A stretch of DNA of 64,000 nt from Candidatus Omnitrophota bacterium (GTDB lineage: Bacteria > Omnitrophota > Gorgyraeia > Duberdicusellales > 4484-171), in assembly GCA_043815185.1 (NCBI GenBank), contig JBDRJF010000024.1, forward strand, positions 128,533 through 192,532, given 5' to 3'. Under the pieces are notes generated by a model. It did no database searches, was not told the DNA's origin, and saw only the letters and a program-made list of their open reading frames with translations. Both the position numbers and the translations under genes were made by a program. Shown piece after piece: positions 8,984 through 60,019 of the stretch (positions are counted from its first letter, which is position 1; every line of letters starts with the position of its first letter).

Positions 8984-9058
8984 ATATAAAGGCTCGAGGA
9001 TAAAATTAAAAGTTGTTTTTATTCTTTGCCGCTTTTTTAATCTTTATCCTTGATATTT

Positions 9059-9336
9059 GCGAGGGTGGCGGAAACAGCTCTTGCGCAGCAAGACAATTGG
9101 TTATCAATAAAACAATTAGCTGTTCCCGCAATAGCTAAAAAGCTACAATAAAACTTTATCTAAGGCAGTAAGCTAAGCATAATAAATAAACTTTAATGCG
9201 AGGGTGGCGGAAACAGCTCTTGCGCAGCAAGATAGTTGCTTATTAATAAGGCGGCTAGTTGTTCCCGCAATGACTAACAGACTAAATTAAGACTTTATAG
9301 AAGATAACGAACTAAGTATAATACACAGACGTTAAT
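9059..9336 (+). repeat. Two tandem upstream modules (138 and 140 nt), each starting with the first 15 nt of tRNA-Leu(GAG)
   Basis: gcgagggtggcggaa occurs at 9059, at 9197 and as the tRNA 5' end at 9337. Both units continue aacagctcttgcgcagcaag...ag(c/t)tgttcccgcaat. Confidence 0.85.
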
Positions 9337-9420
9337 GCGAGGGTGGCGGAATTGGCAGACGCACTAGCTTGAGGGGCTAACGGTAGCGATACCGTAGGGG
9401 TTCAAGTCCCCTCCCTCGCA
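9337..9420 (+). tRNA. tRNA-Leu (anticodon GAG), no encoded CCA
   Basis: Hand-folded cloverleaf: acceptor gcgaggg/ccctcgc, anticodon loop ttGAGgg, long variable arm cggtagcgataccgt, T arm agggg-ttcaagt-cccct. Confidence 0.92.
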
Positions 9421-9564
9421 TAGTTTTATTTAATTAGAAAGTGACGGCGGACAAAAAAAGTCTGTGCTTTCGCATAAAATATCTTGGATCCAATAATAGC
9501 GGTTGAGGCTTAGCCTAAACCGGCTCGCCTTCGGCGAGATTGGATACAAGTCCTCTTCCTCGAA
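9421..9564 (+). repeat. tRNA-trailing structured module D1 (ends in a diverged copy of the tRNA-Leu 3' end)
   Basis: The 3' portion reads ggatccaat..cggttgaggcttagcctaaaccg..ctcgccttcggcgag..attggatac followed by caagtcctcttcctcgaa (3 mismatches to the tRNA 3' end), then CCA. Confidence 0.7.
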
Positions 9565-9580
9565 CCACAATGTACGGTAG

Positions 9581-10936
9581 ATGAAAAAACTCACTTTATT
9601 TCTGATAATTCTTGTATTTCCCACCATTGTAAATGCCGATGCAATTTACCTAAAGGGTGGCCAGAAAATAGAAGGAAAATTTTTAAATACAACAAGCGAG
9701 TATATAAAAATAGATTTTTATGGAGTAGAATTAACTTACTTCTTAGATGAAATAGATCATACAGATATGGATGAAAAACCGACTCAAGGTCATACTTCGG
9801 CTTTTGAGCGTAAAATAAAAGGGTTAAGTTGTACTACAATGGATGAGGTATTAGAACTTTCGGAAGAAGAAATAGATATAGCTACCGCACTTCTTATAAT
9901 ATCTAAGGAGTCTAATAATACCATAAATATCATAGATTATCGTAATGAAATTGATAGTATGGTATTAGAGTTATCTAGACGAATACGCGGCACGAAAGAT
10001 CCAAGAATGATTATAGAGACAATGAATTCCTATTTGTTCGATTCCATTGGATTCAAGCCAAGGATTTTAAAGGATTATGTCTCTGGAAGTAATCCGGAAA
10101 CCTCTTTTTTAAGTAATGTATTGGACAGAAAAGAAGGAGATTGTGAGGGTTTATCTGGTTTATATTTATCGCTCAGCGAAAGACTAACACTACCGATTTA
10201 CGGAGTGTCTTTACCCGCTCATAAGTTTGTTCGCTATACAGATGGCATAACTTCAATAAATATTGAAATGACGGATAGAGGGGAAGTCCACAGTGATGAA
10301 GAATATATAGAATATTATAATTTACCCGGAAAAACATCATTCAAAATTCAATCAAAAAAAGATTTTATTATAGATCATATTATAAAACTTGGCACTTTTT
10401 GGGGATATATAAAAAACCCAGATAAAGCCATTTTTTGGTTGGAGAAAGCTTTAGAGATAAATCCTCAAAGTGAACATGCTCATAATTCGCTGGGTCTCGC
10501 ATATAGAGAAAAGGGATTAATATCAGAAGCAATTTCGAAAATAAAAAAAGCTATAGAAATTAACTCTACTATAGCTGATTTTTACTATAATTTGGGTAGT
10601 ATATATGATAGAGAAGGGATGAAAGACGAGGCTATTGCAGAATATAACAAAGGGCTAAAAATAGCTCCTTCCCCTGCTATTTATTGCTTTCTAGGTAATA
10701 TATATGCTACAAAGGACATGTTGGATGAATCTATTATGCAATATAAATGCGCAATAGAACTCGACCCTAATTACGGTGATGCGCATTGTTTTATTGCTGA
10801 TTGTTACAGACGGAAGGGAGAATACAATCTTGCTTGGCAACATGCAAGAATTGCACAAAAATTAGGCCAGCCATTAGCTACATATGAGATAGAAGAACTA
10901 AATAAAGTTTCAAGCGAACCATCTTTAAAGGAATAA
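9581..10936 (+). CDS. Secreted transglutaminase-like / TPR-repeat protein
   Basis: Signal peptide MKKLTLFLIILVFPTIVNA, a Cys-core-like motif EGDCEGLSGLY, and C-terminal TPR repeats (AIFWLEKALEINP.., AISKIKKAIEIN.., AIAEYNKGLKIAP..). Confidence 0.6.
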   Translation: MKKLTLFLIILVFPTIVNADAIYLKGGQKIEGKFLNTTSEYIKIDFYGVELTYFLDEIDHTDMDEKPTQGHTSAFERKIKGLSCTTMDEVLELSEEEIDIATALLIISKESNNTINIIDYRNEIDSMVLELSRRIRGTKDPRMIIETMNSYLFDSIGFKPRILKDYVSGSNPETSFLSNVLDRKEGDCEGLSGLYLSLSERLTLPIYGVSLPAHKFVRYTDGITSINIEMTDRGEVHSDEEYIEYYNLPGKTSFKIQSKKDFIIDHIIKLGTFWGYIKNPDKAIFWLEKALEINPQSEHAHNSLGLAYREKGLISEAISKIKKAIEINSTIADFYYNLGSIYDREGMKDEAIAEYNKGLKIAPSPAIYCFLGNIYATKDMLDESIMQYKCAIELDPNYGDAHCFIADCYRRKGEYNLAWQHARIAQKLGQPLATYEIEELNKVSSEPSLKE

Positions 10937-11045
10937 AATAGTTACATTAAGGTAGGGGCATGACTACCTTAAATCAAAATAATTTGGTTGCTAAACCAAC
11001 CAAATAAAGTATTAATAAATTCGAAAAGAGTAAAAGGAGGGAAAA

Positions 11046-11477
11046 ATGGTTAAACGGCCGTATTTGATAAATTTTATCGCTTGGACCGAAATTATTTTTG
11101 GCTCAATAGGATGTTTAATTTTTGCGGGTTTAGCAGTATACAATCTAGTGGGGGGCTTTTTTGACCATACTTATGGTTACTGGGGCATAGCTTTTGGATT
11201 TATCTTTCTAATATCTGCCTTATTATTTCTTTTCCAAATGATTTGTGGACTAAGCATTTTTAAAGCTAAAAGATGGATTTTAACATTTGTTCTTGGTTTT
11301 TTTAAAATGCTTCTTTATTTAGCATGCATCGTTTTAAGCGTTTATTTAATATACATCAATAAGTATCTAAATAATCTTATCCTTTTTTGTGTATTGGTTC
11401 TGTTTATATTTTTAGCGTCAAGTATATATGTAGTTTGGTGGCTAAGCCGTCCTTTTGTAAAACAGCAATTTACATAA
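11046..11477 (+). CDS. Hypothetical integral membrane protein (4 TM)
   Basis: 143 aa and strongly hydrophobic, with AAGGAGG upstream. Confidence 0.45.
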   Translation: MVKRPYLINFIAWTEIIFGSIGCLIFAGLAVYNLVGGFFDHTYGYWGIAFGFIFLISALLFLFQMICGLSIFKAKRWILTFVLGFFKMLLYLACIVLSVYLIYINKYLNNLILFCVLVLFIFLASSIYVVWWLSRPFVKQQFT

Positions 11478-11525
11478 TCTATATCTAATAATTTTCTCTT
11501 ACTCTACTAAACTTTTAATGCTACC

Positions 11526-12283
11526 AGGGGACGGTTCTCGTTGCCCTATCCTTTACCCGCACAATAAGTTGTAAACACACCATTATAAATATCTAATTTA
11601 TTTGAAAGAAAAAGCCTTCTTTATACGTCTATTATAGAAAAGAGGAGGTTTTTATGCCACGCCAAGCCAGAGAAATTCCATCAGCAGGGTATCTACATAT
11701 AATAAGCCGAGGAAATAATAAAAGGAAGATCTTCCGCTACGAAAGGGATAAAAAGCAGTATTATCTCTATCTTAAAAATTTGAAGCAGCAAGAGAAGATT
11801 AATATTTGCCATTACTGCCTTATGGGTAATCACGTACATCTTCTTGTAGAGGTAAGGCAGGAAAGTAACCTATCCAGGTTTATGAAACGGATCAACCTTA
11901 AATATGTCTATTACTACCAAAGAAAATACACCTATTGTGGCCATCTCTGGCAGGATAGATTCCAATCAAAGATAATCAATAATGAGCCTTATCTGATACA
12001 ATGCGGTAAATACATAGAACTAAATCCTGTACGGGCCGGCATTGTTTCCTCTCCGGAAAATTACCCTTTCTCAAGCTATCACTACTATGGCGTTGGTCAA
12101 AAAGATTCACTTATTACCCCAAACCCTTTATATGAAGGCTTAAGTAAACAACAGGAAAAGAGACAGCATATATATAGAAATCTAATAATTGAGAAAGAAA
12201 ATGAGACAGAAGAAACAAAAAAATAATTGTCTGTTCATAACTAACTGGTGTATAATAAGTAAGGGGTGAGAGAACCGTCCCCT
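11526..12283. mobile_element. RAYT/IS200-like unit 1 bounded by 14-bp inverted repeats
   Basis: aggggacggttctc at 11526-11539 and its reverse complement gagaaccgtcccct at 12270-12283 flank the Y1 transposase gene. Confidence 0.6.
11654..12226 (+). CDS. IS200/IS605-family HUH Y1 transposase, REP-associated (RAYT)-like
   Basis: 190 aa. HUH motif GNHVHLLVEV; Tyr-motif region GKYIELNPVRAGIV; WQDRFQSKII. Confidence 0.75.
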   Translation: MPRQAREIPSAGYLHIISRGNNKRKIFRYERDKKQYYLYLKNLKQQEKINICHYCLMGNHVHLLVEVRQESNLSRFMKRINLKYVYYYQRKYTYCGHLWQDRFQSKIINNEPYLIQCGKYIELNPVRAGIVSSPENYPFSSYHYYGVGQKDSLITPNPLYEGLSKQQEKRQHIYRNLIIEKENETEETKK

Positions 12284-12297
12284 TCTGGAGGTTAAGT

Positions 12298-13062
12298 ATG
12301 GCAAAAATCACTTTCCTGGGAACTTCTTCAAGCATTCCTACAGACAAAAGGGACAATACTTCTTTTATTCTGGCTCATAAAAAACTTAGGCTTCTAATCG
12401 ACTGCCCCGGCTCGATAACACAGAAACTCTTAAAAATAGGGTTAGATTTTAGAAAAATAAAGGATATCGTTATCACCCACGAACACCCTGACCATATTTA
12501 CGGAATAATCTCACTCATTCATACCCAAGCTTACTTTAATGACAGCTTAAGAATATTTACTACCCCGCCTTCTCTAAAAATTATTAGGCAATTAATAAAG
12601 TTATTCGAATTGGATAAACCCCAGTATCCCAAGGTAAAGTATGTTAATGTATTTAAGAGAAAAAAATTCTTAAACAAGGAGGGGTTAAGAATATCGGCAA
12701 TAAGAAACAAACATATTCCCGGTTCTTTTGGGATAAGAGCCTCTTTCGCTAAAAAGTCCTTATTCTACTCTTCAGATACCTCATTCTCTAAAAGGATGCT
12801 GAAGGAAGCTGGCCAGACTAACTACCTTATCCATGATTGCACTGCTTCCTCCTCCTTTTTCCAAAAACACCCTTCTCTCTATAAAATGCATACTTCAGCC
12901 AAAGAGCTCAGCGATTACCTAAAGGCTTTCCTAAGGATAAAATTTATTCCAGTACATTTTTTACTTATTACCAAGAGTGAGGAGAAAAAAATAAGAAAGG
13001 AATTGAAATCTTTGGGCAGCAGGGTTATCTGGGCGGAAGATTTTAAAACAATTGTTCTTTAA
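12298..13062 (+). CDS. MBL-fold metallo-hydrolase, short RNase Z-like
   Basis: 254 aa. The N-terminus KITFLGTSSSIPTDKRDNTSF..LIDCPGS..ITHEHPDHIYG parallels RNase Z, but the protein is shorter, with no obvious flexible-arm insert. Confidence 0.55.
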   Translation: MAKITFLGTSSSIPTDKRDNTSFILAHKKLRLLIDCPGSITQKLLKIGLDFRKIKDIVITHEHPDHIYGIISLIHTQAYFNDSLRIFTTPPSLKIIRQLIKLFELDKPQYPKVKYVNVFKRKKFLNKEGLRISAIRNKHIPGSFGIRASFAKKSLFYSSDTSFSKRMLKEAGQTNYLIHDCTASSSFFQKHPSLYKMHTSAKELSDYLKAFLRIKFIPVHFLLITKSEEKKIRKELKSLGSRVIWAEDFKTIVL

Positions 13063-15405: not shown

Positions 15406-15628
15406 AATACTCTACCATAAGTTAAACAAAAAACCAATAAAAAACCCCACCTTTCATCCGTTACAGGCAATTGCTATCAATCCCTCGCTAGACAAGTGGG
15501 CACCGCATCATTACCGACCAAACGATAAGAGATATTGGCTCCCTATTAAGGGTGTTGGTTGTAGCACTCTTACCTGCTGACGCAATAGGCAGGGTTTATT
15601 TTCCCCTTGTTGTCTTCAGGTTAAACTT

Positions 15629-22333: not shown

Positions 22334-22479
22334 TTTTTACCTCCAGTAGTCTTTCATCCCATCTTTGCTTGCTCTTCTTGCGAAAACTTATTTTGCATAT
22401 TAATAACGATAATGGATGCAATGCGGCTTTTCCAGCCGCTCCGCCTGCGGCGGAGATTGTATACAGCTTAGTCTCCTTT

Positions 22480-40801: not shown

Positions 40802-40939
40802 TGCCCCCGGCAGGAATCGTATGCAATCTGCCCCAGGCAGTTGAATTCGAAGAATTCACCCTATTGCATCCGATGGCCGCCATCACAATAAGTAAAAACC
40901 TTACCCAGCCACAGGCACCTATCGATTACTAAAAAACCG
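40802..40939 (-). repeat. tRNA-trailing structured module D5 (ends in a copy of the tRNA-Arg 3' end)
   Basis: The minus strand reads ggatgcaat..tgaattc-ttc-gaattca..ctgcc-tgg-ggcag..attgcatac cgattcctgccgggggca. Fifteen nt are identical to the tRNA, followed by 1 mismatch. Confidence 0.7.
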
Positions 40940-48859: not shown

Positions 48860-48871
48860 ATAAATAAAAAG

Positions 48872-49020
48872 CGACCCCAGCCGGATTTGTATGCCCTCTC
48901 CGACGAAGTCGGAGCCGGTTGAGGCTAAGCCTCAACCGCATATGCATACAAAATAAGACATTGGCTTTTGTCGCTACCCCTGAGTTTTAGCTGGATACTG
49001 AGCTTTAGCATTAAATAATA
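48872..49020 (-). repeat. tRNA-trailing structured module D4 (ends in a copy of the tRNA-Glu 3' end)
   Basis: The minus strand reads tgtatgc..cggttgaggcttagcctcaaccg..ctccgac-ttc-gtcggag..gcataca followed by caaatccggctggggtcg (18 nt identical to the tRNA). Confidence 0.72.
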
Positions 49021-57048: not shown

Positions 57049-57251
57049 GAAAGGTAGTGCTCTTTTTTTTAAGGCTTTATCGTTCAGTGTCCGGGGTATT
57101 TCCCGGCCGTTGTATCTACTTTCCTACCTGTTCCCAATATTCTCAACAAGCTTTTTTACACTACCCTTTTTTTAAAGCTTTGAAACTTAGCTTAATTCGC
57201 CTCCTCCGCTGCAACCCTTTTGCCAAGGGGGGGATTGACCTTTTAAAATAA
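57045..57251 (+). CDS. yidD: Membrane protein insertion efficiency factor YidD
   Basis: 68 aa with CIYFPTCSQYSQQA..RCNPFAKGGIDLL. Its ATG overlaps the rpmH stop (ATGA). Confidence 0.85.
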   Translation: MRKVVLFFLRLYRSVSGVFPGRCIYFPTCSQYSQQAFLHYPFFKALKLSLIRLLRCNPFAKGGIDLLK

Positions 57252-58705
57252 TGATGGAAAAGCGGTTTTTCTTAGCTTTTGTTGTAACTTTAGTTTTTTT
57301 TGTAATCTATTCCCAGCTGGTTGCACGATTCATGCCGCAACCAGTTCCTCTACAAGGAGATAGAAAAGAATATTCCCGGGAAGACCAAGGCTCGCTACAG
57401 CCTGGACAAATTTCTTCCCAGCCTTCCCCTTTAATCATAGAAGAACCAGCTGAATCGATTGATTTCCCTCAAGCAGTCATAGGTAATTTTGTTATAACAT
57501 ACTCTCCTTTAGGTGGTTACATAAAAAGTATCGCTATCGGTGATCAAGCCAGTGAACTTCCTTTTCAGAATATTGGTTTTTTGCCTCAAGACCAGGGTAA
57601 ACAATTCACTGCCAATATCAGCGATAAAGGAATTGAATTTATTGGGCCGGGTGACCAGCGCAAAGCATTTGTCTTTGAGGGCTATAGCTTAGGAATAACT
57701 CTTAATCCTCCACCAGTTGAACCGCTAGTTCTGTTCTCGAACTCTTTACACCCCAATATGTTAGACCAAAGATATCAGGAAATTTTTTATTCTCGGGGGC
57801 AAGTCATAAAAAGAAGCTCAGCACAAAAAATGAAAGATAATACTTATAGCAGTGTTGAATTCGCCGGAGCCCGGGATCGCTATTATTGTTTTTCATTACT
57901 CAAAGGGAACTATAAATTCAAGTGGTTAAAAGACAAGGAAAAAGGGCACTTGTATCTCTTTTCTCCGCCGGAGCAAATTTTAGTTTATGTTGGGCCTCAA
58001 CTTAACAAAGAGCTAAAACCATTTGGGCTAGAGGGGGTTATCTACTATGGTTTCTTCCATGCCATTGGTGTGGGGATGATAAAACTTCTCTACTTTTTTT
58101 ACTTTCTGACCAAAAATTGGGGTTTAAGCATTGTTTTCTTCTCCGTCTCAGTTTCTTTGCTCCTCTTCCCCTTTACATCTAAGAGTACTGTAGCTATGCG
58201 GAAAATGCAGCAGATTCAGCCGGAAGTCGAAGCCATAAAAGCCAAGTACAAGGATAATCCTCAGAAGTTACAAAAAGAAACCATTGAATTATATCGAAAA
58301 TACAAGATAAATCCTTTGGGCGGGTGTTTGCCGTTGTTATTTCAGCTTCCGGTAATTATGGCTTTTTACCAGATTATTTTTCGTTTTGTAGAGTTAAGAG
58401 GCGCTCATTTCTTATGGATTAAAGATCTTTCTCAGCCGGATCGCTTTTGCAAACTCCCCTTCCCTGGCCCCTTAGGTTACTTGAATCTCCTCCCGATTTT
58501 TTTAGTGGCTATAGGGCTTGTGCAGCAAAAAATTACTACCTCCTCCTCCGCTGCTCCGTCGCAACAGAAATCAATGGGGCTGTTTTTTACAGTATTTATC
58601 GGAGTTATTTTTTACACCTTCCCTTCAGCCCTAACCCTGTATTGGCTTATCCAGAATTTATTTACCTTGTCTCATCAAGCCCATCTAGCCCGAAACAAGA
58701 CCTAA
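57251..58705 (+). CDS. yidC: Membrane protein insertase YidC
   Basis: 484 aa with an N-terminal TM helix, a periplasmic domain and the conserved core MRKMQQIQPEVEAIKAKYKDNPQKLQKETIELYRKYKINPLGGCLP. Confidence 0.92.
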   Translation: MMEKRFFLAFVVTLVFFVIYSQLVARFMPQPVPLQGDRKEYSREDQGSLQPGQISSQPSPLIIEEPAESIDFPQAVIGNFVITYSPLGGYIKSIAIGDQASELPFQNIGFLPQDQGKQFTANISDKGIEFIGPGDQRKAFVFEGYSLGITLNPPPVEPLVLFSNSLHPNMLDQRYQEIFYSRGQVIKRSSAQKMKDNTYSSVEFAGARDRYYCFSLLKGNYKFKWLKDKEKGHLYLFSPPEQILVYVGPQLNKELKPFGLEGVIYYGFFHAIGVGMIKLLYFFYFLTKNWGLSIVFFSVSVSLLLFPFTSKSTVAMRKMQQIQPEVEAIKAKYKDNPQKLQKETIELYRKYKINPLGGCLPLLFQLPVIMAFYQIIFRFVELRGAHFLWIKDLSQPDRFCKLPFPGPLGYLNLLPIFLVAIGLVQQKITTSSSAAPSQQKSMGLFFTVFIGVIFYTFPSALTLYWLIQNLFTLSHQAHLARNKT

Positions 58706-58711
58706 ATACAG

Positions 58712-59184
58712 GTTTCCACGTGAAAACGGACAGGTTTCCACGTGAAAACGGACAGATTTTCACGTGAAAACGGAGAGGTTTCCACGTGAAAACACTTAAG
58801 TGGAAACATTCACTATAGCAACACAAAGAGTCCACAAGTCCAATTCTCAAAACGCAAAACAAGCCAGGCTTAACTAACCAAAATTAGGTAATTTTTTTGG
58901 TTATTTTCACGTGAAAACACAAAGAACTTGACAATCGCTCTTTTTTTTATTACAATTAGGTAAAGCTTCAGCCTTTGGCGCATAAACTAGTAGAATATTG
59001 CGAATCTAGTTGCTGGAGTAAATCACTAGCTGATATTAAAACAGGTGTGGAAACATTAATTTTGTCAATTGCTCTGAGGGTAAAGCGGTTTTCACGTGTC
59101 TCTCCCCTGAGAATAAAAGTACTGGGGAGATCCATGTGGAAACCTCTATCATTCCATAAGAGCACGAGGTTTTCACGTGAAAAC
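58712..59184. promoter_or_regulatory. Array of six 16-bp parS-like palindromes plus four half sites
   Basis: RTTTYCACGTGAAAAC occurs at 58712, 58734, 58756, 58778 (exact 22-bp spacing), 58903 and 59169; the last is the perfect palindrome GTTTTCACGTGAAAAC. Half sites lie at 58800, 59047, 59088 and 59136. Confidence 0.6.
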
Positions 59185-59206: not shown

Positions 59207-60019
59207 ATGGGCAAAATAATCGGCATTTGTAATCAAAAAGGTGGTACTGGCAAGACGACCACAGCGATTAATTTAAGCTCGTTTTTAGGCCTGGGGAATA
59301 AAAAAACTTTACTTATTGACATGGATCCTCAAGGTAATGCTACTTCCGGAGTAGGATTTGACAGCCAAGGAAAAAACTCTATTTACGATGTAATTATGGA
59401 CAAAGCTCTTTTGTCCGAAAGCATTTATCCTACTAAATGGCCGCAATTACAGCTTATCCCTTCAGACATTTCCCTTACCGGCGGAGAAGTTGAATTAGTC
59501 AATACCGAGAATAGAGAATTGCGGTTAAGTCAAAGGTTGGAGGAGATCAAGAATGATTTTTCCTACATTATTATTGATGCGCCGCCTTCTTTAGGCCTGC
59601 TTACGGTAAATGTCTTAGCCGCTTCGGATAGTTTGGTTATTCCGGTACAATGCGAATACTATGCTTTAGAGGGAGTTTCCAAATTAATCAATACTGTAGA
59701 GCTAATTCGTGAAAGATTAAATCCTTCATTAGAGATTGAAGGGGTTCTTCTCACCATGGCTGATTTTCGTACCCGGCTTACTTTGCAGGTGATAGAGGAG
59801 GTGCGAAGGTTTTTTCAGCAAAAAACACTTGATGTTATTGTACCTCGGAATATAAAACTTGCTGAGGCTCCTAGTTTTGGTAAGCCGATCTTTTTTTACG
59901 ATCCGGCTTGCGTGGGTGCTAAAGCCTACTTAAATTTAGCTCAAAAAATATTAAAGGAGAATATAGAACTTAACCAATTAGCAAGTCCGGTTGACAGAGC
60001 ACCTTCTCTCACCGGATAA
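59207..60019 (+). CDS. parA: Chromosome partitioning ATPase ParA/Soj
   Basis: 270 aa with the deviant Walker A NQKGGTGKTT. Confidence 0.92.
   Translation: MGKIIGICNQKGGTGKTTTAINLSSFLGLGNKKTLLIDMDPQGNATSGVGFDSQGKNSIYDVIMDKALLSESIYPTKWPQLQLIPSDISLTGGEVELVNTENRELRLSQRLEEIKNDFSYIIIDAPPSLGLLTVNVLAASDSLVIPVQCEYYALEGVSKLINTVELIRERLNPSLEIEGVLLTMADFRTRLTLQVIEEVRRFFQQKTLDVIVPRNIKLAEAPSFGKPIFFYDPACVGAKAYLNLAQKILKENIELNQLASPVDRAPSLTG

Follow-up and report, generated by a model that had tools for sequence, protein, structure and literature searches.

Tandem units upstream of tRNA-Leu(GAG)

The window, the whole 64 kb stretch of DNA that was analyzed, contains a gene for tRNA-Leu(GAG) that is preceded by two tandem units (Table 1). 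An MBL gene and a RAYT-like gene lie nearby, as do genes for a TPR protein and a response regulator. Exactly three copies of the 16-mer TGCGAGGGTGGCGGAA are present in the window, at 9058, 9197 and 9336, where about 0.06 matches are expected by chance with two mismatches allowed; G1 of the tRNA fragment thus falls at 9059, 9198 and 9337. The first-pass annotation had recognized three copies of the tRNA 5' end, and these are confirmed. The spacing that it gave as 138 and 140 nt is 139 nt in both cases, and its second fragment begins at 9198 rather than 9197. The copied nucleotides 1-15 cover the acceptor 5' strand, U8, G9, the 5' strand of the D-stem and A14-A15.

A single tandem array (9058-9351) was identified using TRF, with a period of 139, 2.1 copies, 80% matches and no indels. 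The two units are identical at 108 of 139 positions (78%), and the 31 positions that differ follow a non-random, complementary pattern. Repeats of 14-16 nt flank each 123-nt insert, and the first-pass annotation was right to treat the unit as an indel with direct tRNA repeats at its borders.

The upstream cassette has a paralog at tRNA-Leu(TAA), located in the tRNA-Cys/tRNA-Leu spacer. The covariance model detects three copies only in the 64 kb, all at tRNA-Leu genes. Five tRNAs of the window are also followed by a cassette of a second type, in which a three-way junction leads into an 18-nt copy of the tRNA 3' end. UUCG loops occur in these downstream cassettes.

Table 1. Coordinates of the units, cassettes and related features in the window.
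Feature	Position	Strand	Remarks
Unit 1	9058..9196	+	TRF array, repeats; ancestral left flank and hairpin core apparently kept, 3' promoter half apparently decayed
Copy 1 of tRNA-Leu(GAG) nt 1-15	9059..9073	+	
Unit 1 conserved hairpin	9068..9129	+	Covariance model R1 95.7 bits, fold, pair counts
Unit 1 P0	GCGG 9068-9071 pairs CCGC 9126-9129	+	
Unit 1 P1	AACAGCT 9073-9079 pairs AGCTGTT 9118-9124	+	
Unit 1 H1	9080-9092	+	CTTGC-GCA-GCAAG
Unit 1 internal loop	9093-9117	+	25 nt
Weak promoter-like site, unit 1	9155..9183	+	TTTATC-17-CATAAT, read from sequence; below scan threshold
Unit 2	9197..9335	+	Ancestral 3' half with promoter-like site apparently kept; internal-loop ("second hairpin") region diverged
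Copy 2 of tRNA-Leu(GAG) nt 1-15	9198..9212	+	
Unit 2 conserved hairpin	9207..9268	+	Same P0/P1/H1; R1 84 bits; P1 with one G-U pair
Promoter-like site, unit 2	9294..9322	+	TTTATA-17-TATAAT; passes promoter scan; conserved in L002 and L005
tRNA-Leu(GAG)	9337..9421	+	CCA not encoded
Downstream cassette of tRNA-Leu(GAG)	9422..9567	+	U-rich start, hairpin, three-way junction
P1 of tRNA-Leu(GAG) downstream cassette	9483-9494 pairs 9539-9550	+	
Decayed copy of tRNA nt 56-73 plus CCA	9547-9567	+	End of tRNA-Leu(GAG) downstream cassette
Downstream cassette of tRNA-Arg(CCG)	40802..40938	-	
Downstream cassette of tRNA-Glu(TTC)	48871..49019	-	
Paralogous upstream cassette of tRNA-Leu(TAA)	63234..63370	+	R1 49.2 bits; starts with own tRNA's TGCCGGGGTGTTGG
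Downstream cassette of tRNA-Leu(TAA)	63459..63599	+	Three-way junction; 18-19-nt copy of tRNA 3' end
Downstream cassette of tRNA-Val(GAC)	63715..63848	+	

Structure, occurrence and conservation of the cassette

The cassette hairpin is built from P0 (4 bp, using tRNA nucleotides 10-13), P1 (7 bp) and H1 (5-6 bp, capped by a tri- or tetraloop); the internal partner of the tRNA-derived nucleotides 10-13 is CCNN. Each unit folds in silico as drawn in the first-pass annotation. Both contain the two elements that it had listed as shared, an outer helix (GCGG A AACAGCT / AGCTGTT C CCGC) and a first hairpin, and they differ, as it reported, in the second hairpin, which is AATTG/CAATT in unit 1 and a 9-bp helix of TAGTTGCTT and AAGGCGGCTA in unit 2. 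The latter helix includes three G-U pairs and the outer helix of unit 2 includes one. Such pairs, read on the plus strand, had been taken as a hint of an RNA transcribed in the direction of the tRNA. The argument stands for the outer helix and first hairpin, where both wobbles found across 13 aligned copies are G-U on the tRNA-sense strand. The G-U pairs of the second hairpin carry little weight because that hairpin is not conserved beyond each unit.

The outer helix and first hairpin are conserved in the 13 homologous copies, with compensatory changes. In an alignment fitted to the covariance model, which leans towards the modelled structure, 98.6% of cells pair, versus 26-58% when the partners are slid. 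Four pairs are changed on both sides. Variants of P0 are GCGG/CCGC, TTGG/CCAA and ATGG/CCAT, the two-sided change in P1 is from G-C to A-U, and H1 varies among C-G, A-U and G-C. The observed covariation score, drawn from approximately three or four independent lineages or paralog groups, was reached by none of 500 shuffles. The model-fitted alignment was used in place of MAFFT alignments of all cassettes, which mis-registered H1; P0 and P1 were nonetheless recovered when an independent MAFFT alignment was given to RNAalifold. The two generic signs of a structured RNA under selection are both present here, over few independent lineages: helices are maintained by compensatory changes, and conservation exceeds the neutral rate. 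Most helix positions are invariant across copies, and this could alternatively reflect sequence-specific recognition at the DNA level. The 9-nt 5' tail of the cassette stays unpaired in every consensus fold. As a conserved partner of the fragment's acceptor strand, a 3-4-bp pairing with NYCC was considered and rejected, because it is present in TAA and CAA cassettes and absent from GAG cassettes.

When GTDB genomes and JGI metagenomes were scanned with a sequence pattern, the cassette was found directly upstream of tRNA-Leu(GAG), tRNA-Leu(TAA) or tRNA-Leu(CAA), the sole exception among the matches being a stand-alone core in L006. In related Omnitrophota MAGs and metagenome contigs, the cassette of approximately 139 nt is present as a single copy per tRNA-Leu. 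It starts with positions -1 to +13/15 of its own tRNA (i.e., the first 13-16 nt), with a single mismatch (G1 to A, in L007), and ends in an AT-rich tail of approximately 65 nt; in the GAG lineage this tail includes a sigma-70-like promoter that ends 14 nt before the tRNA. Stand-alone copies of both cassette cores were located (in L006, at position 3632 of L003 and at 22411 of the window). Flanking duplications were not significant at the stand-alone L006 copy, nor at two stand-alone three-way-junction copies.

No Rfam 15 family was identified over either cassette type when the window and six loci were searched, whether the gathering threshold or E<=1-10 was applied. Scans of viral contigs with both cassette patterns returned no match, and neither did phage and plasmid collections queried with the two units by blastn; full-text literature searches found no description of such cassettes.

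Conservation of the hairpin and tRNA fragment reaches 95-100% at divergences that leave fourfold-degenerate sites approximately 50% identical or saturated. For example, the fragment and core of unit 1 are 95% identical to the L005 cassette, compared to 52% at fourfold sites of the adjacent response regulator. In L018, at 30% fourfold-site identity, the fragment is 100% identical and the helices are kept. These values indicate purifying selection on the fragment and hairpin core. Identity of the 14-nt fragment over saturating divergence is not obviously explained by duplication and deletion alone, and calls for some selection or frequent homogenization.

Promoter-like sites and copy number at the locus

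The first-pass annotation had placed a -10-like element at the end of each unit. Both elements are present (CATAAT at 9178-9183 and TATAAT at 9317-9322), each 14 nt before the next G1, and only that of unit 2 belongs to a site that passes the promoter scan. The unit 1 site scores 8/12 and would start a transcript approximately 7 nt before fragment copy 2, the assignments in both units being consensus matches only. The window, L002 and L005 have the pattern TTTA(C/T)A-17-(T/C)ATAAT within their GAG cassettes. No promoter was found inside the L004 cassette; there a strong TTGACA-17-TATGAT lies upstream of the fragment. The sole good promoter in tRNA-Leu(CAA) and tRNA-Leu(TAA) contexts is upstream of the cassette. 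Thus, we infer that the cassette is transcribed as a pre-tRNA leader or spacer, and its removal by RNase P would follow.

Neither an intrinsic terminator nor an attenuator was recognized, as the conserved hairpin is followed by CCCGCAAU, and the single match of the terminator scan (9224-9239) is no better than chance. A sigma-54 promoter (GG-N-TTGC) was rejected because its spacing would exceed the proper length by one nucleotide and its GG derives from the tRNA. Resemblances to rrn boxA, an IHF site and an integron attC site were ruled out on sequence. A T-box or specifier function was also set aside, as UGGN and codon-like triplets are inconsistent across isoacceptors and lie inside helices.

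Comparison with relatives separates the two halves of each unit. Against the single cassettes of L003 and L005, identity is 95% for the core of unit 1 and only 62-71% for its 3' half. The core of unit 2 is 84-86% identical to those of relatives and its 3' half 85% identical to L005; over L002 and L005 together the value for this half is 80-85%, and for L003 only 57%. We conclude that the units probably decayed in a complementary way, with the hairpin retained in unit 1 and the promoter in unit 2. The 3' half of the L003 unit is 57-62% identical to both window units, against 89% fourfold-site identity. This divergence is far above the fourfold-site prediction, and therefore the history appears to be more complex than one recent duplication.

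The first-pass annotation had proposed a check of unit copy number in related assemblies. At the syntenic locus there are two units (in the window), one or none; one is the usual number among relatives, others lack the unit, and L003 has one plus a 19-nt remnant of a second. L026 is the sister of the cassette-bearing L005 (bootstrap support 100%), and in L026 the left flank of the cassette (CTTAATATT) is joined directly to the intact tRNA, a precise loss between the direct repeats. L032 has an empty site of the same kind, and L029, L027 and L020 are also empty. The cassette is dispensable, as it is absent at the locus from these five related lineages.

In L003, the displaced 3'-end copy retains the CCA and flank that are found after the intact tRNA in L005. 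This comparison shows that the downstream cassette is an insertion at the T-loop, accompanied by an 18-nt duplication.

Origin of the units and alternative explanations

We consider it probable that the units are a local, lineage-specific tandem duplication of a tRNA-Leu leader cassette that is conserved in one Omnitrophota clade. Whole units would be gained or lost when the 14-16-nt direct repeats recombine unequally or replication slips between them. After duplication, the halves would decay in the complementary manner described above, and the sigma-70-type promoter of unit 2 would fire approximately 7 nt ahead of the tRNA. The cassette itself may be transcribed in the tRNA direction within the pre-tRNA leader, and then be cut away by RNase P. 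In this respect it resembles the non-coding parts of stable-RNA operons: tandem promoters such as rrn P1/P2, structured pre-tRNA leaders that RNase P cuts away, and spacers that give rise to small RNAs. Like these, the cassette supplies or follows a promoter and is situated within the leader or spacer of a tRNA transcript, from which RNase P would free it. To our knowledge, no described leader starts with an exact copy of the tRNA 5' end and closes a hairpin on it.

Serial site-specific integration, which the first-pass annotation had raised for the array, now seems unlikely. In this reading, a small structured mobile element of approximately 123 nt would target the D-loop-coding part of tRNA-Leu, duplicate 14-16 nt and have struck the window twice. 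Direct repeats of the target do bound the unit, homologous cassettes occur at three tRNA-Leu genes, each with the sequence of the local tRNA, and presence among close relatives is patchy. The stand-alone hairpin core of L006 is away from any tRNA, and the downstream cassettes act as insertions (with the 18-nt duplication) and have cores away from tRNAs as well. However, there is no transposase or integrase gene within or adjoining the unit. The nearest recombinase-like gene (11654-12226) is a REP-associated Y1 transposase-like gene with unrelated flanking repeats. Its REP, GGGGACGGTTCTC, occurs only at 11527 and 12270, on either side of the RAYT-like gene, and is absent from the units. RAYT was also rejected as the mobilizing enzyme, as the tRNA 3'-end copy is absent after the RAYT unit in L032 and the REPs are unrelated to the cassettes. 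Further, the units share lineage-specific states (the GCA loop and the TTTAT variant of the -35 element) and show complementary decay, as local duplication predicts, and the copy numbers in relatives fit unequal recombination between the 14-16-nt repeats. There are just three copies in 64 kb, and viral, phage and plasmid collections are without matches.

As with the att duplications made by integrases at islands and prophages, direct repeats of part of a tRNA bound the insert, the gene is left intact and copy number varies. In contrast to those duplications, the upstream cassette repeats the tRNA 5' end (nucleotides -1 to +15) instead of the 3' part, its 123-nt insert lacks a tyrosine or serine integrase, and its hairpin pairs with 4 nt of the repeat; orthologous cassettes also appear to be vertically inherited under purifying selection. 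It is in the downstream cassettes that the 3' part (nucleotides 56-73) is repeated.

It is quite unlikely that the cassette is a tRNA-mimic regulator acting in trans or in cis. Here the released leader would use a stable hairpin as a handle to display an acceptor 5'-strand copy in single-stranded form, and would target the 3' acceptor strand of tRNA-Leu, the downstream 3'-end copies or a tRNA-Leu-specific protein, two copies doubling the dose. The fragment is perfectly conserved and co-varies with its cognate tRNA over three isoacceptors, selection appears to act on P0, which employs tRNA-derived nucleotides, and the 9-nt tail is left unpaired in all consensus folds; this tail is complementary to the downstream 3'-end copy in the window and in L003. 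That reading is hard to reconcile with loss of the cassette without replacement in five related lineages and with the missing downstream partner at most cassette-bearing loci. Also against it are the lack of an Rfam family match and of a terminator.

Decay of tandem tRNA-Leu genes to pseudogenes of which only the 5' ends are left is a very improbable source of the units. An exact tRNA 5' end opens each unit, P0 reproduces the D-stem pairing, and a period of 139 nt is plausible as an 85-nt tRNA plus a 54-nt spacer. The sequence that follows P0 in unit 1, ATAGCT-AAAAA-GCTAC, is similar to that of the anticodon arm, CTAGCT-TGAGGG-GCTAAC, but this likeness is confined to unit 1, in its decaying half. 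ARAGORN and the Rfam tRNA model RF00005 call only 9337-9421 and nothing in 9058-9335, even at E<=10, and past nucleotide 16 an alignment to the tRNA recovers only CGCA (the 3' side of the D-stem). A non-tRNA hairpin is instead strongly conserved, and is also found in a non-tRNA context. The two strands of P0 in the CAA cassette are perfectly complementary (ATGG/CCAT), whereas those of the D-stem of that tRNA are not.

Tandem repeats are error-prone in short-read MAGs, yet wrong expansion of one cassette during assembly is scarcely credible. The differences between the two units, by their number and complementary pattern, speak against identical repeats having been collapsed or expanded, and the nearest relative, L003, was independently assembled in several samples and carries a second-unit remnant.

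For the tandem duplication of a conserved leader cassette, a prior step may be envisaged. The cassette may have arisen as a small structured insertion in the region of tRNA-Leu genes that codes for the D-loop, with an intact gene regenerated by duplication of its first 14 nt; in the GAG lineage, the insertion would also have supplied the tRNA with its own promoter. Where anatomy, conservation, copy-number variation and promoter positions can be read from the aligned loci themselves, the insertion origin of the upstream cassette is suggested more weakly, and only by analogy with the downstream cassettes, because no empty-versus-filled pair tells which copy of the repeat is new. A broader proposal, which we regard as doubtful, is that both types of Omnitrophota cassettes enter the D- or T-loop-coding part of a tRNA gene, duplicate 14-18 nt up to the mature end, pair 4 nt with the target and are later retained as leaders or trailers. 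Entry might be as DNA or via an RNA intermediate, and the target could be recognized by base pairing of four cassette nucleotides with the first target-derived nucleotides.

Several mobile systems share parts of this anatomy. Integration of casposons and CRISPR spacers by Cas1-family integrases involves long target duplications and tRNA-gene targets. The cassettes similarly have long duplications (14-18 nt) at tRNA genes, and tandem arrays are possible; this is a resemblance only, as a Cas1 gene and terminal inverted repeats were not seen and the inserts are approximately 125-145 nt. At the ends of IS200/IS605 elements, a 4-nt internal guide pairs with the sequence flanking the cleavage site, beside a subterminal hairpin, and insertion produces no target duplication. 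In the cassettes, the hairpin likewise has at its base a pairing of four internal nucleotides with four of the tRNA-derived repeat, and a Y1 (HUH) transposase-like gene lies 2.3 kb away. Unlike these elements, the cassette has a 14-16-nt duplication, and the Y1 gene of the window resembles a RAYT gene and has REP repeats of its own that are unrelated to the cassettes. The wobble pairs, together with the UUCG loops of downstream cassettes, point to RNA over single-stranded DNA.

REPs, REPINs and MITEs are also short non-coding hairpin units, and stand-alone copies of both cassette cores add to that likeness. The cassettes differ from them in their very low copy number, in ends without terminal inverted repeats and in a strong tie to tRNA loops with long copies of tRNA ends. 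Compared to MITEs in particular, the inverted repeats are internal (P1 and H1), the duplication is 14-16 nt rather than 2-10 bp, and only three copies occur in the 64 kb.

For annotation, the locus is a warning that "tRNA fragments" beside tRNA genes are not always integrase scars. It also offers a clean natural case of repeat-mediated change in copy number (0, 1 and 2) followed by complementary decay of duplicated non-coding elements. Questions raised are how duplications of 14-18 nt that end exactly at RNase P or RNase Z sites are made, why the copied 5' end stays identical to the tRNA, and whether such leaders and trailers influence tRNA maturation or supply. If our reading is right, this uncultured clade of ultra-small bacteria has tRNA genes embedded in modular, selected RNA structures that start or end with copies of the tRNA's own ends.

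The tandem pair before tRNA-Leu(GAG)

Three occurrences of the 16-mer TGCGAGGGTGGCGGAA lie at a spacing of exactly 139 nt, and the third is the start of tRNA-Leu(GAG). The first-pass annotation was off by one in its spacing (138/140 nt; measured, 139/139) and in its fragment coordinate of 9197. A single array was reported by TRF (period 139, 2.1 copies, 80% matches, 0 indels). Single-sequence folds of both units reproduce the helices drawn previously, including an outer helix (GCGG-A-AACAGCT / AGCTGTT-C-CCGC) and a CTTGC-GCA-GCAAG hairpin. The second hairpin does differ between the units and is G-U-rich in unit 2, but it is not conserved in other copies; this stretch is an AU-rich internal loop. 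With 31 mismatches across their 139 positions, the units are unlikely to have arisen by misassembling identical copies. Membership tests rejected the units as tRNAs, MITEs, REPINs, terminators or Rfam family members.

Features of the window and of related loci (locus handle before the colon; all other positions are in the window)
Feature	Position	Strand
Copies of the 16-mer	9058, 9197, 9336	
TRF array	9058-9351	
Upstream unit 1; unit 2	9058-9196; 9197-9335	
Sigma-70-like site, unit 2	9294-9322	
Counterpart site, unit 1	9155-9183	
Covariance model copies	9068, 9207, 63244	
tRNA-Leu(GAG)	9337-9421	
tRNA-Leu(TAA)	63371-63458	
Downstream cassette, tRNA-Leu(GAG)	9422-9567	
Downstream cassette, tRNA-Leu(TAA)	63459-63599	
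Downstream cassette, tRNA-Val(GAC)	63715-63848	
Downstream cassette, tRNA-Glu(TTC)	48871-49019	-
Downstream cassette, tRNA-Arg(CCG)	40802-40938	-
Stand-alone upstream core	L006:1722-1782	
Stand-alone junction copies	22411-22470; L003:3632-3700	+; +
tRNA-Val(GAC) with different trailer	L001:2827-2992; L008:5832-5997	-; -
Insertion of ~2.7 kb	9568-12297	
Y1 transposase-like gene	11654-12226	
Inverted GGGGACGGTTCTC repeats	11527, 12270	
MBL-fold gene	12298-13062	
6S RNA	15440-15598	-
dnaA	55443-56777	-
yidC	57251-58705	
22-nt unit array	58708-58793	
parA	59207-60019	
Tandem ~22-nt repeats	L021:3440-3520	

Distribution, structure and probable transcription of the upstream cassette

A 137-nt segment of like architecture, opening with that tRNA's own TGCCGGGGTGTTGG, precedes tRNA-Leu(TAA) in the window. 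A single scan each of GTDB genomes and JGI metagenomes with hairpin-derived patterns identified 12 loci (given L handles here). These are on metagenome contigs and in MAGs that bear the label Candidatus Susulua stagnicola or 'uncultured Planctomycetia'; the response-regulator protein adjoining the cassette loci is annotated as Candidatus Omnitrophota. At 11 of these, a single cassette is located directly upstream of tRNA-Leu(GAG), (TAA) or (CAA), with start-to-start spacing of 131-139 nt, and opens with the first 13-16 nt of that tRNA (one mismatch in all, in L007). The twelfth, L006, has the hairpin core alone (38 bits), which lies in the 5' region of a gene for a CARDB-domain protein and is closed by another 7-bp helix (GTCAAGA/TCTTGAC); it lacks a tRNA fragment, and no nearby tRNA or significant flanking repeat was found. 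No Rfam family matches the upstream cassette, nor does any entry in phage, plasmid and viral collections. The cassette is conserved, and is not a local oddity of the window.

A covariance model built from five GAG-type cores, comprising helices P0, P1 and H1, identifies exactly three copies in the window. In an alignment of 13 distinct copies, which is fitted to the model and to which about 3-4 independent groups contribute, 98.6% of cells pair, versus 26-58% with partners slid by 1-3 columns. Four pairs are changed on both sides. P0 occurs as GCGG/CCGC, TTGG/CCAA or ATGG/CCAT, one P1 pair as G-C or A-U, and the first H1 pair as C-G, A-U or G-C; where only one side of a helix pair has changed, the result is always G-U as read on the tRNA-sense strand. 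The observed covariation score was not reached in any of 500 shuffles. P0, P1 and H1 are kept with compensatory changes, in support of the outer helix and first hairpin drawn from the two units. RNAalifold, applied to an unrelated MAFFT alignment of full units, recovered P0 and P1 and found no conserved pairing of the fragment's first 9 nt or of the AT-rich 3' half. In the CAA cassette, P0 (ATGG/CCAT) pairs perfectly, unlike the D-stem of the tRNA itself; P0 has therefore been matched to the local fragment and was not taken from the tRNA.

Judged by fourfold sites in the neighbouring response-regulator gene, taken as neutral, the core is strongly conserved. Between the window and L005 these sites are 52% identical, the fragment and core of unit 1 95%, and the 3' half of unit 2 85%. 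Against L018, with fourfold sites only 30% identical, the fragment is 100% identical and the helices persist, H1 being longer and one pair U-G.

The 3' half of GAG-type cassettes includes a conserved sigma-70-like site, TTTA(C/T)A-17-(T/C)ATAAT, ending 13-14 nt before the tRNA (in the window, L005 and L002). The idea that each fragment could start its own transcript would suit unit 2, where the promoter-like site, a consensus match, is conserved in L002 and L005, better than unit 1, with its weaker match (8/12). At the CAA locus, L004, the sole good promoter (TTGACA-17-TATGAT, extended -10) is 11 nt upstream of the fragment, and no good promoter was found within the cassette. The TAA cassette is in the tRNA-Cys/tRNA-Leu spacer, without a promoter of its own. 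Thus, we infer that these two tRNAs are expressed only via transcription through the cassette. These contexts, together with the sense-strand wobbles, make a sense RNA the most likely folded species, presumably a pre-tRNA leader removed by RNase P; transcription in the tRNA's direction, proposed in the first-pass annotation, is consistent with the same evidence. Cassette and tRNA are probably transcribed together, and cassettes of the GAG lineage probably supply the tRNA's own promoter. In the cassette-free L026 and L027 the tRNA starts only 2-4 nt past the response-regulator stop codon.

Gain, loss and decay of units

Syntenic loci were fetched from relatives via the conserved FIST / histidine kinase / response-regulator gene cluster. 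Two units are present in the window; L003 has one, along with 19 nt remaining from the 3' end of a further unit; one is present in L002, L005/L013, L017 and L018; and none in L026, L032, L029, L027 and L020. L021, the most distant relative examined, has tandem ~22-nt repeats (GACCAAAGACTATAGACCATAGACC...) after the response regulator gene, in place of the tRNA. In the response-regulator gene tree L026 is sister to L005 (100% bootstrap) and nested among cassette-bearing lineages, and the absence of the cassette there is therefore a secondary loss. The left-flank sequence of the fragment in L005, L002 and the window (CTTAATATT / CTTTATCCTTGAATT) joins the intact tRNA directly in L026 and L032. 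Thus, exactly one cassette insert plus one copy of the direct repeat is absent there. A like exchange between direct repeats, run in reverse, would yield the window's two units.

Unit 1 retains the ancestral left flank and a core 95% identical to those of L003 and L005, with a 3' half only 62-71% identical to theirs. The 3' half of unit 2, promoter included, is 80-85% identical to L002 and L005; its core is only 84-86% identical because of ten changes in the internal loop. Common to both units are the GCA loop and a T in the -35 element, each characteristic of the window/L003 lineage. The pattern is one of complementary decay after local duplication. The 3' halves of the units diverge by 32%, versus 11% at fourfold sites between the window and L003, which, with the L003 remnant, suggests an array older than the divergence of the window and L003 lineages, at a locus with rapid turnover. 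The 3' half of L003 itself shares only 57-62% identity with either window unit, a sign of a history more complex than one recent duplication. Overall, it is well supported that the pair arose specifically in this lineage by repeat-mediated duplication, and that what was duplicated is a conserved tRNA-Leu leader cassette, under selection and bounded by direct repeats.

Trailers, neighbouring features and origin

Five of the seven complete window tRNAs (Leu-GAG, Leu-TAA, Val-GAC, Glu-TTC and Arg-CCG) also carry a 3' segment of ~135-150 nt, ending in a three-way junction, after which come 18 nt that copy nt 56-73 of the same tRNA. The CCA-encoding Val-TAC and Cys-GCA lack one. The outer 4 bp of the trailer P1 are formed with the copy's first four nucleotides and co-vary with the T-loop (CTTG/CAAG, ATCG/CGAT, TTTG/CAAA); one compensated change (CTCG/CGAG) lies within the tRNA copy. 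Position 5 of P1 is a G-A or G-G mismatch in six of seven copies; the 9-bp P1 of tRNA-Glu lacks this mismatch. Several hairpin loops are C(UUCG)G, an RNA-specific stability motif. In L003, the displaced 3'-end copy retains CCA and flank (AAATGGCAAAGATTATTTTT), both of which directly follow the intact tRNA in L005, and the functional tRNA copy lacks CCA. The L003 trailer was thus inserted with duplication of 18 nt, which stop precisely at the discriminator base. Of the 18 positions, 3 have changed in each displaced copy at tRNA-Leu(GAG), different ones in the window and L003; unlike the upstream fragment, these copies decay freely. Either selection or homogenisation by recurrent unequal exchange may keep the upstream fragment identical to the tRNA.

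The junction model matches twice away from tRNAs, with no significant flanking direct repeat at either site; the window copy is between rpmI-like and rplT-like genes, both on the opposite strand. In L001 and L008, tRNA-Val(GAC) has a different trailer, with three hairpins in series and, last, 12-13 nt copied from the tRNA 3' end (CTGTATCGCCCA), and therefore more than one trailer family exists.

The ~2.7-kb insertion relative to L003/L005, between the tRNA-Leu trailer and the MBL-fold gene, encodes a TPR/transglutaminase-like protein, a 143-aa membrane ORF and a REP-associated Y1 transposase-like protein. The Y1 gene is flanked by inverted repeats, and also follows tRNA-Leu(GAG) in L026 and L032. 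The window's MBL-fold gene, whose counterpart comes directly after tRNA-Leu(GAG) in relatives, weakly resembles RNase Z (TIGR02651, 109 bits; cutoff 293), with a below-threshold match to the anti-Pycsar Apyc1 family. Also identified was a 6S RNA just above the Rfam gathering score (49.5 vs 46.4) and conserved in L003. Four tandem 22-nt units (ACAGGTTTCCACGTGAAAACGG), each with inverted DnaA-box-like TTTCCAC/GTGAAAA motifs, are located between yidC and parA, near dnaA and at the cumulative GC-skew minimum; from these sequence features, the region is probably the chromosomal replication origin.

Upstream and downstream cores behave as low-copy dispersed structured repeats, strongly associated with tRNA loops. 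It is mainly for this reason that we take seriously an origin of the upstream cassette by insertion with target duplication, the weaker claim. Duplications of both kinds stop exactly at mature tRNA ends. The closest known case is the partial tRNA duplication left by integrases, in which part of a tRNA gene is likewise repeated; here, however, the repeat comes from the 5' end, no integrase is present, and the 123-nt insert is itself a structure under selection. Cas1-type integration makes long target duplications and IS200/IS605 elements use guide/cleavage-site pairing; both likenesses may serve as leads only. The nearby Y1 gene is RAYT-like (75.9 bits; cutoff 80), and its REP repeats are its own, unrelated to the cassettes.

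The tandem finding is real and, as a local duplication, modest in itself. It is, however, a pointer to a feature of tRNA loci that is fairly widespread in one Omnitrophota clade and apparently not yet described.
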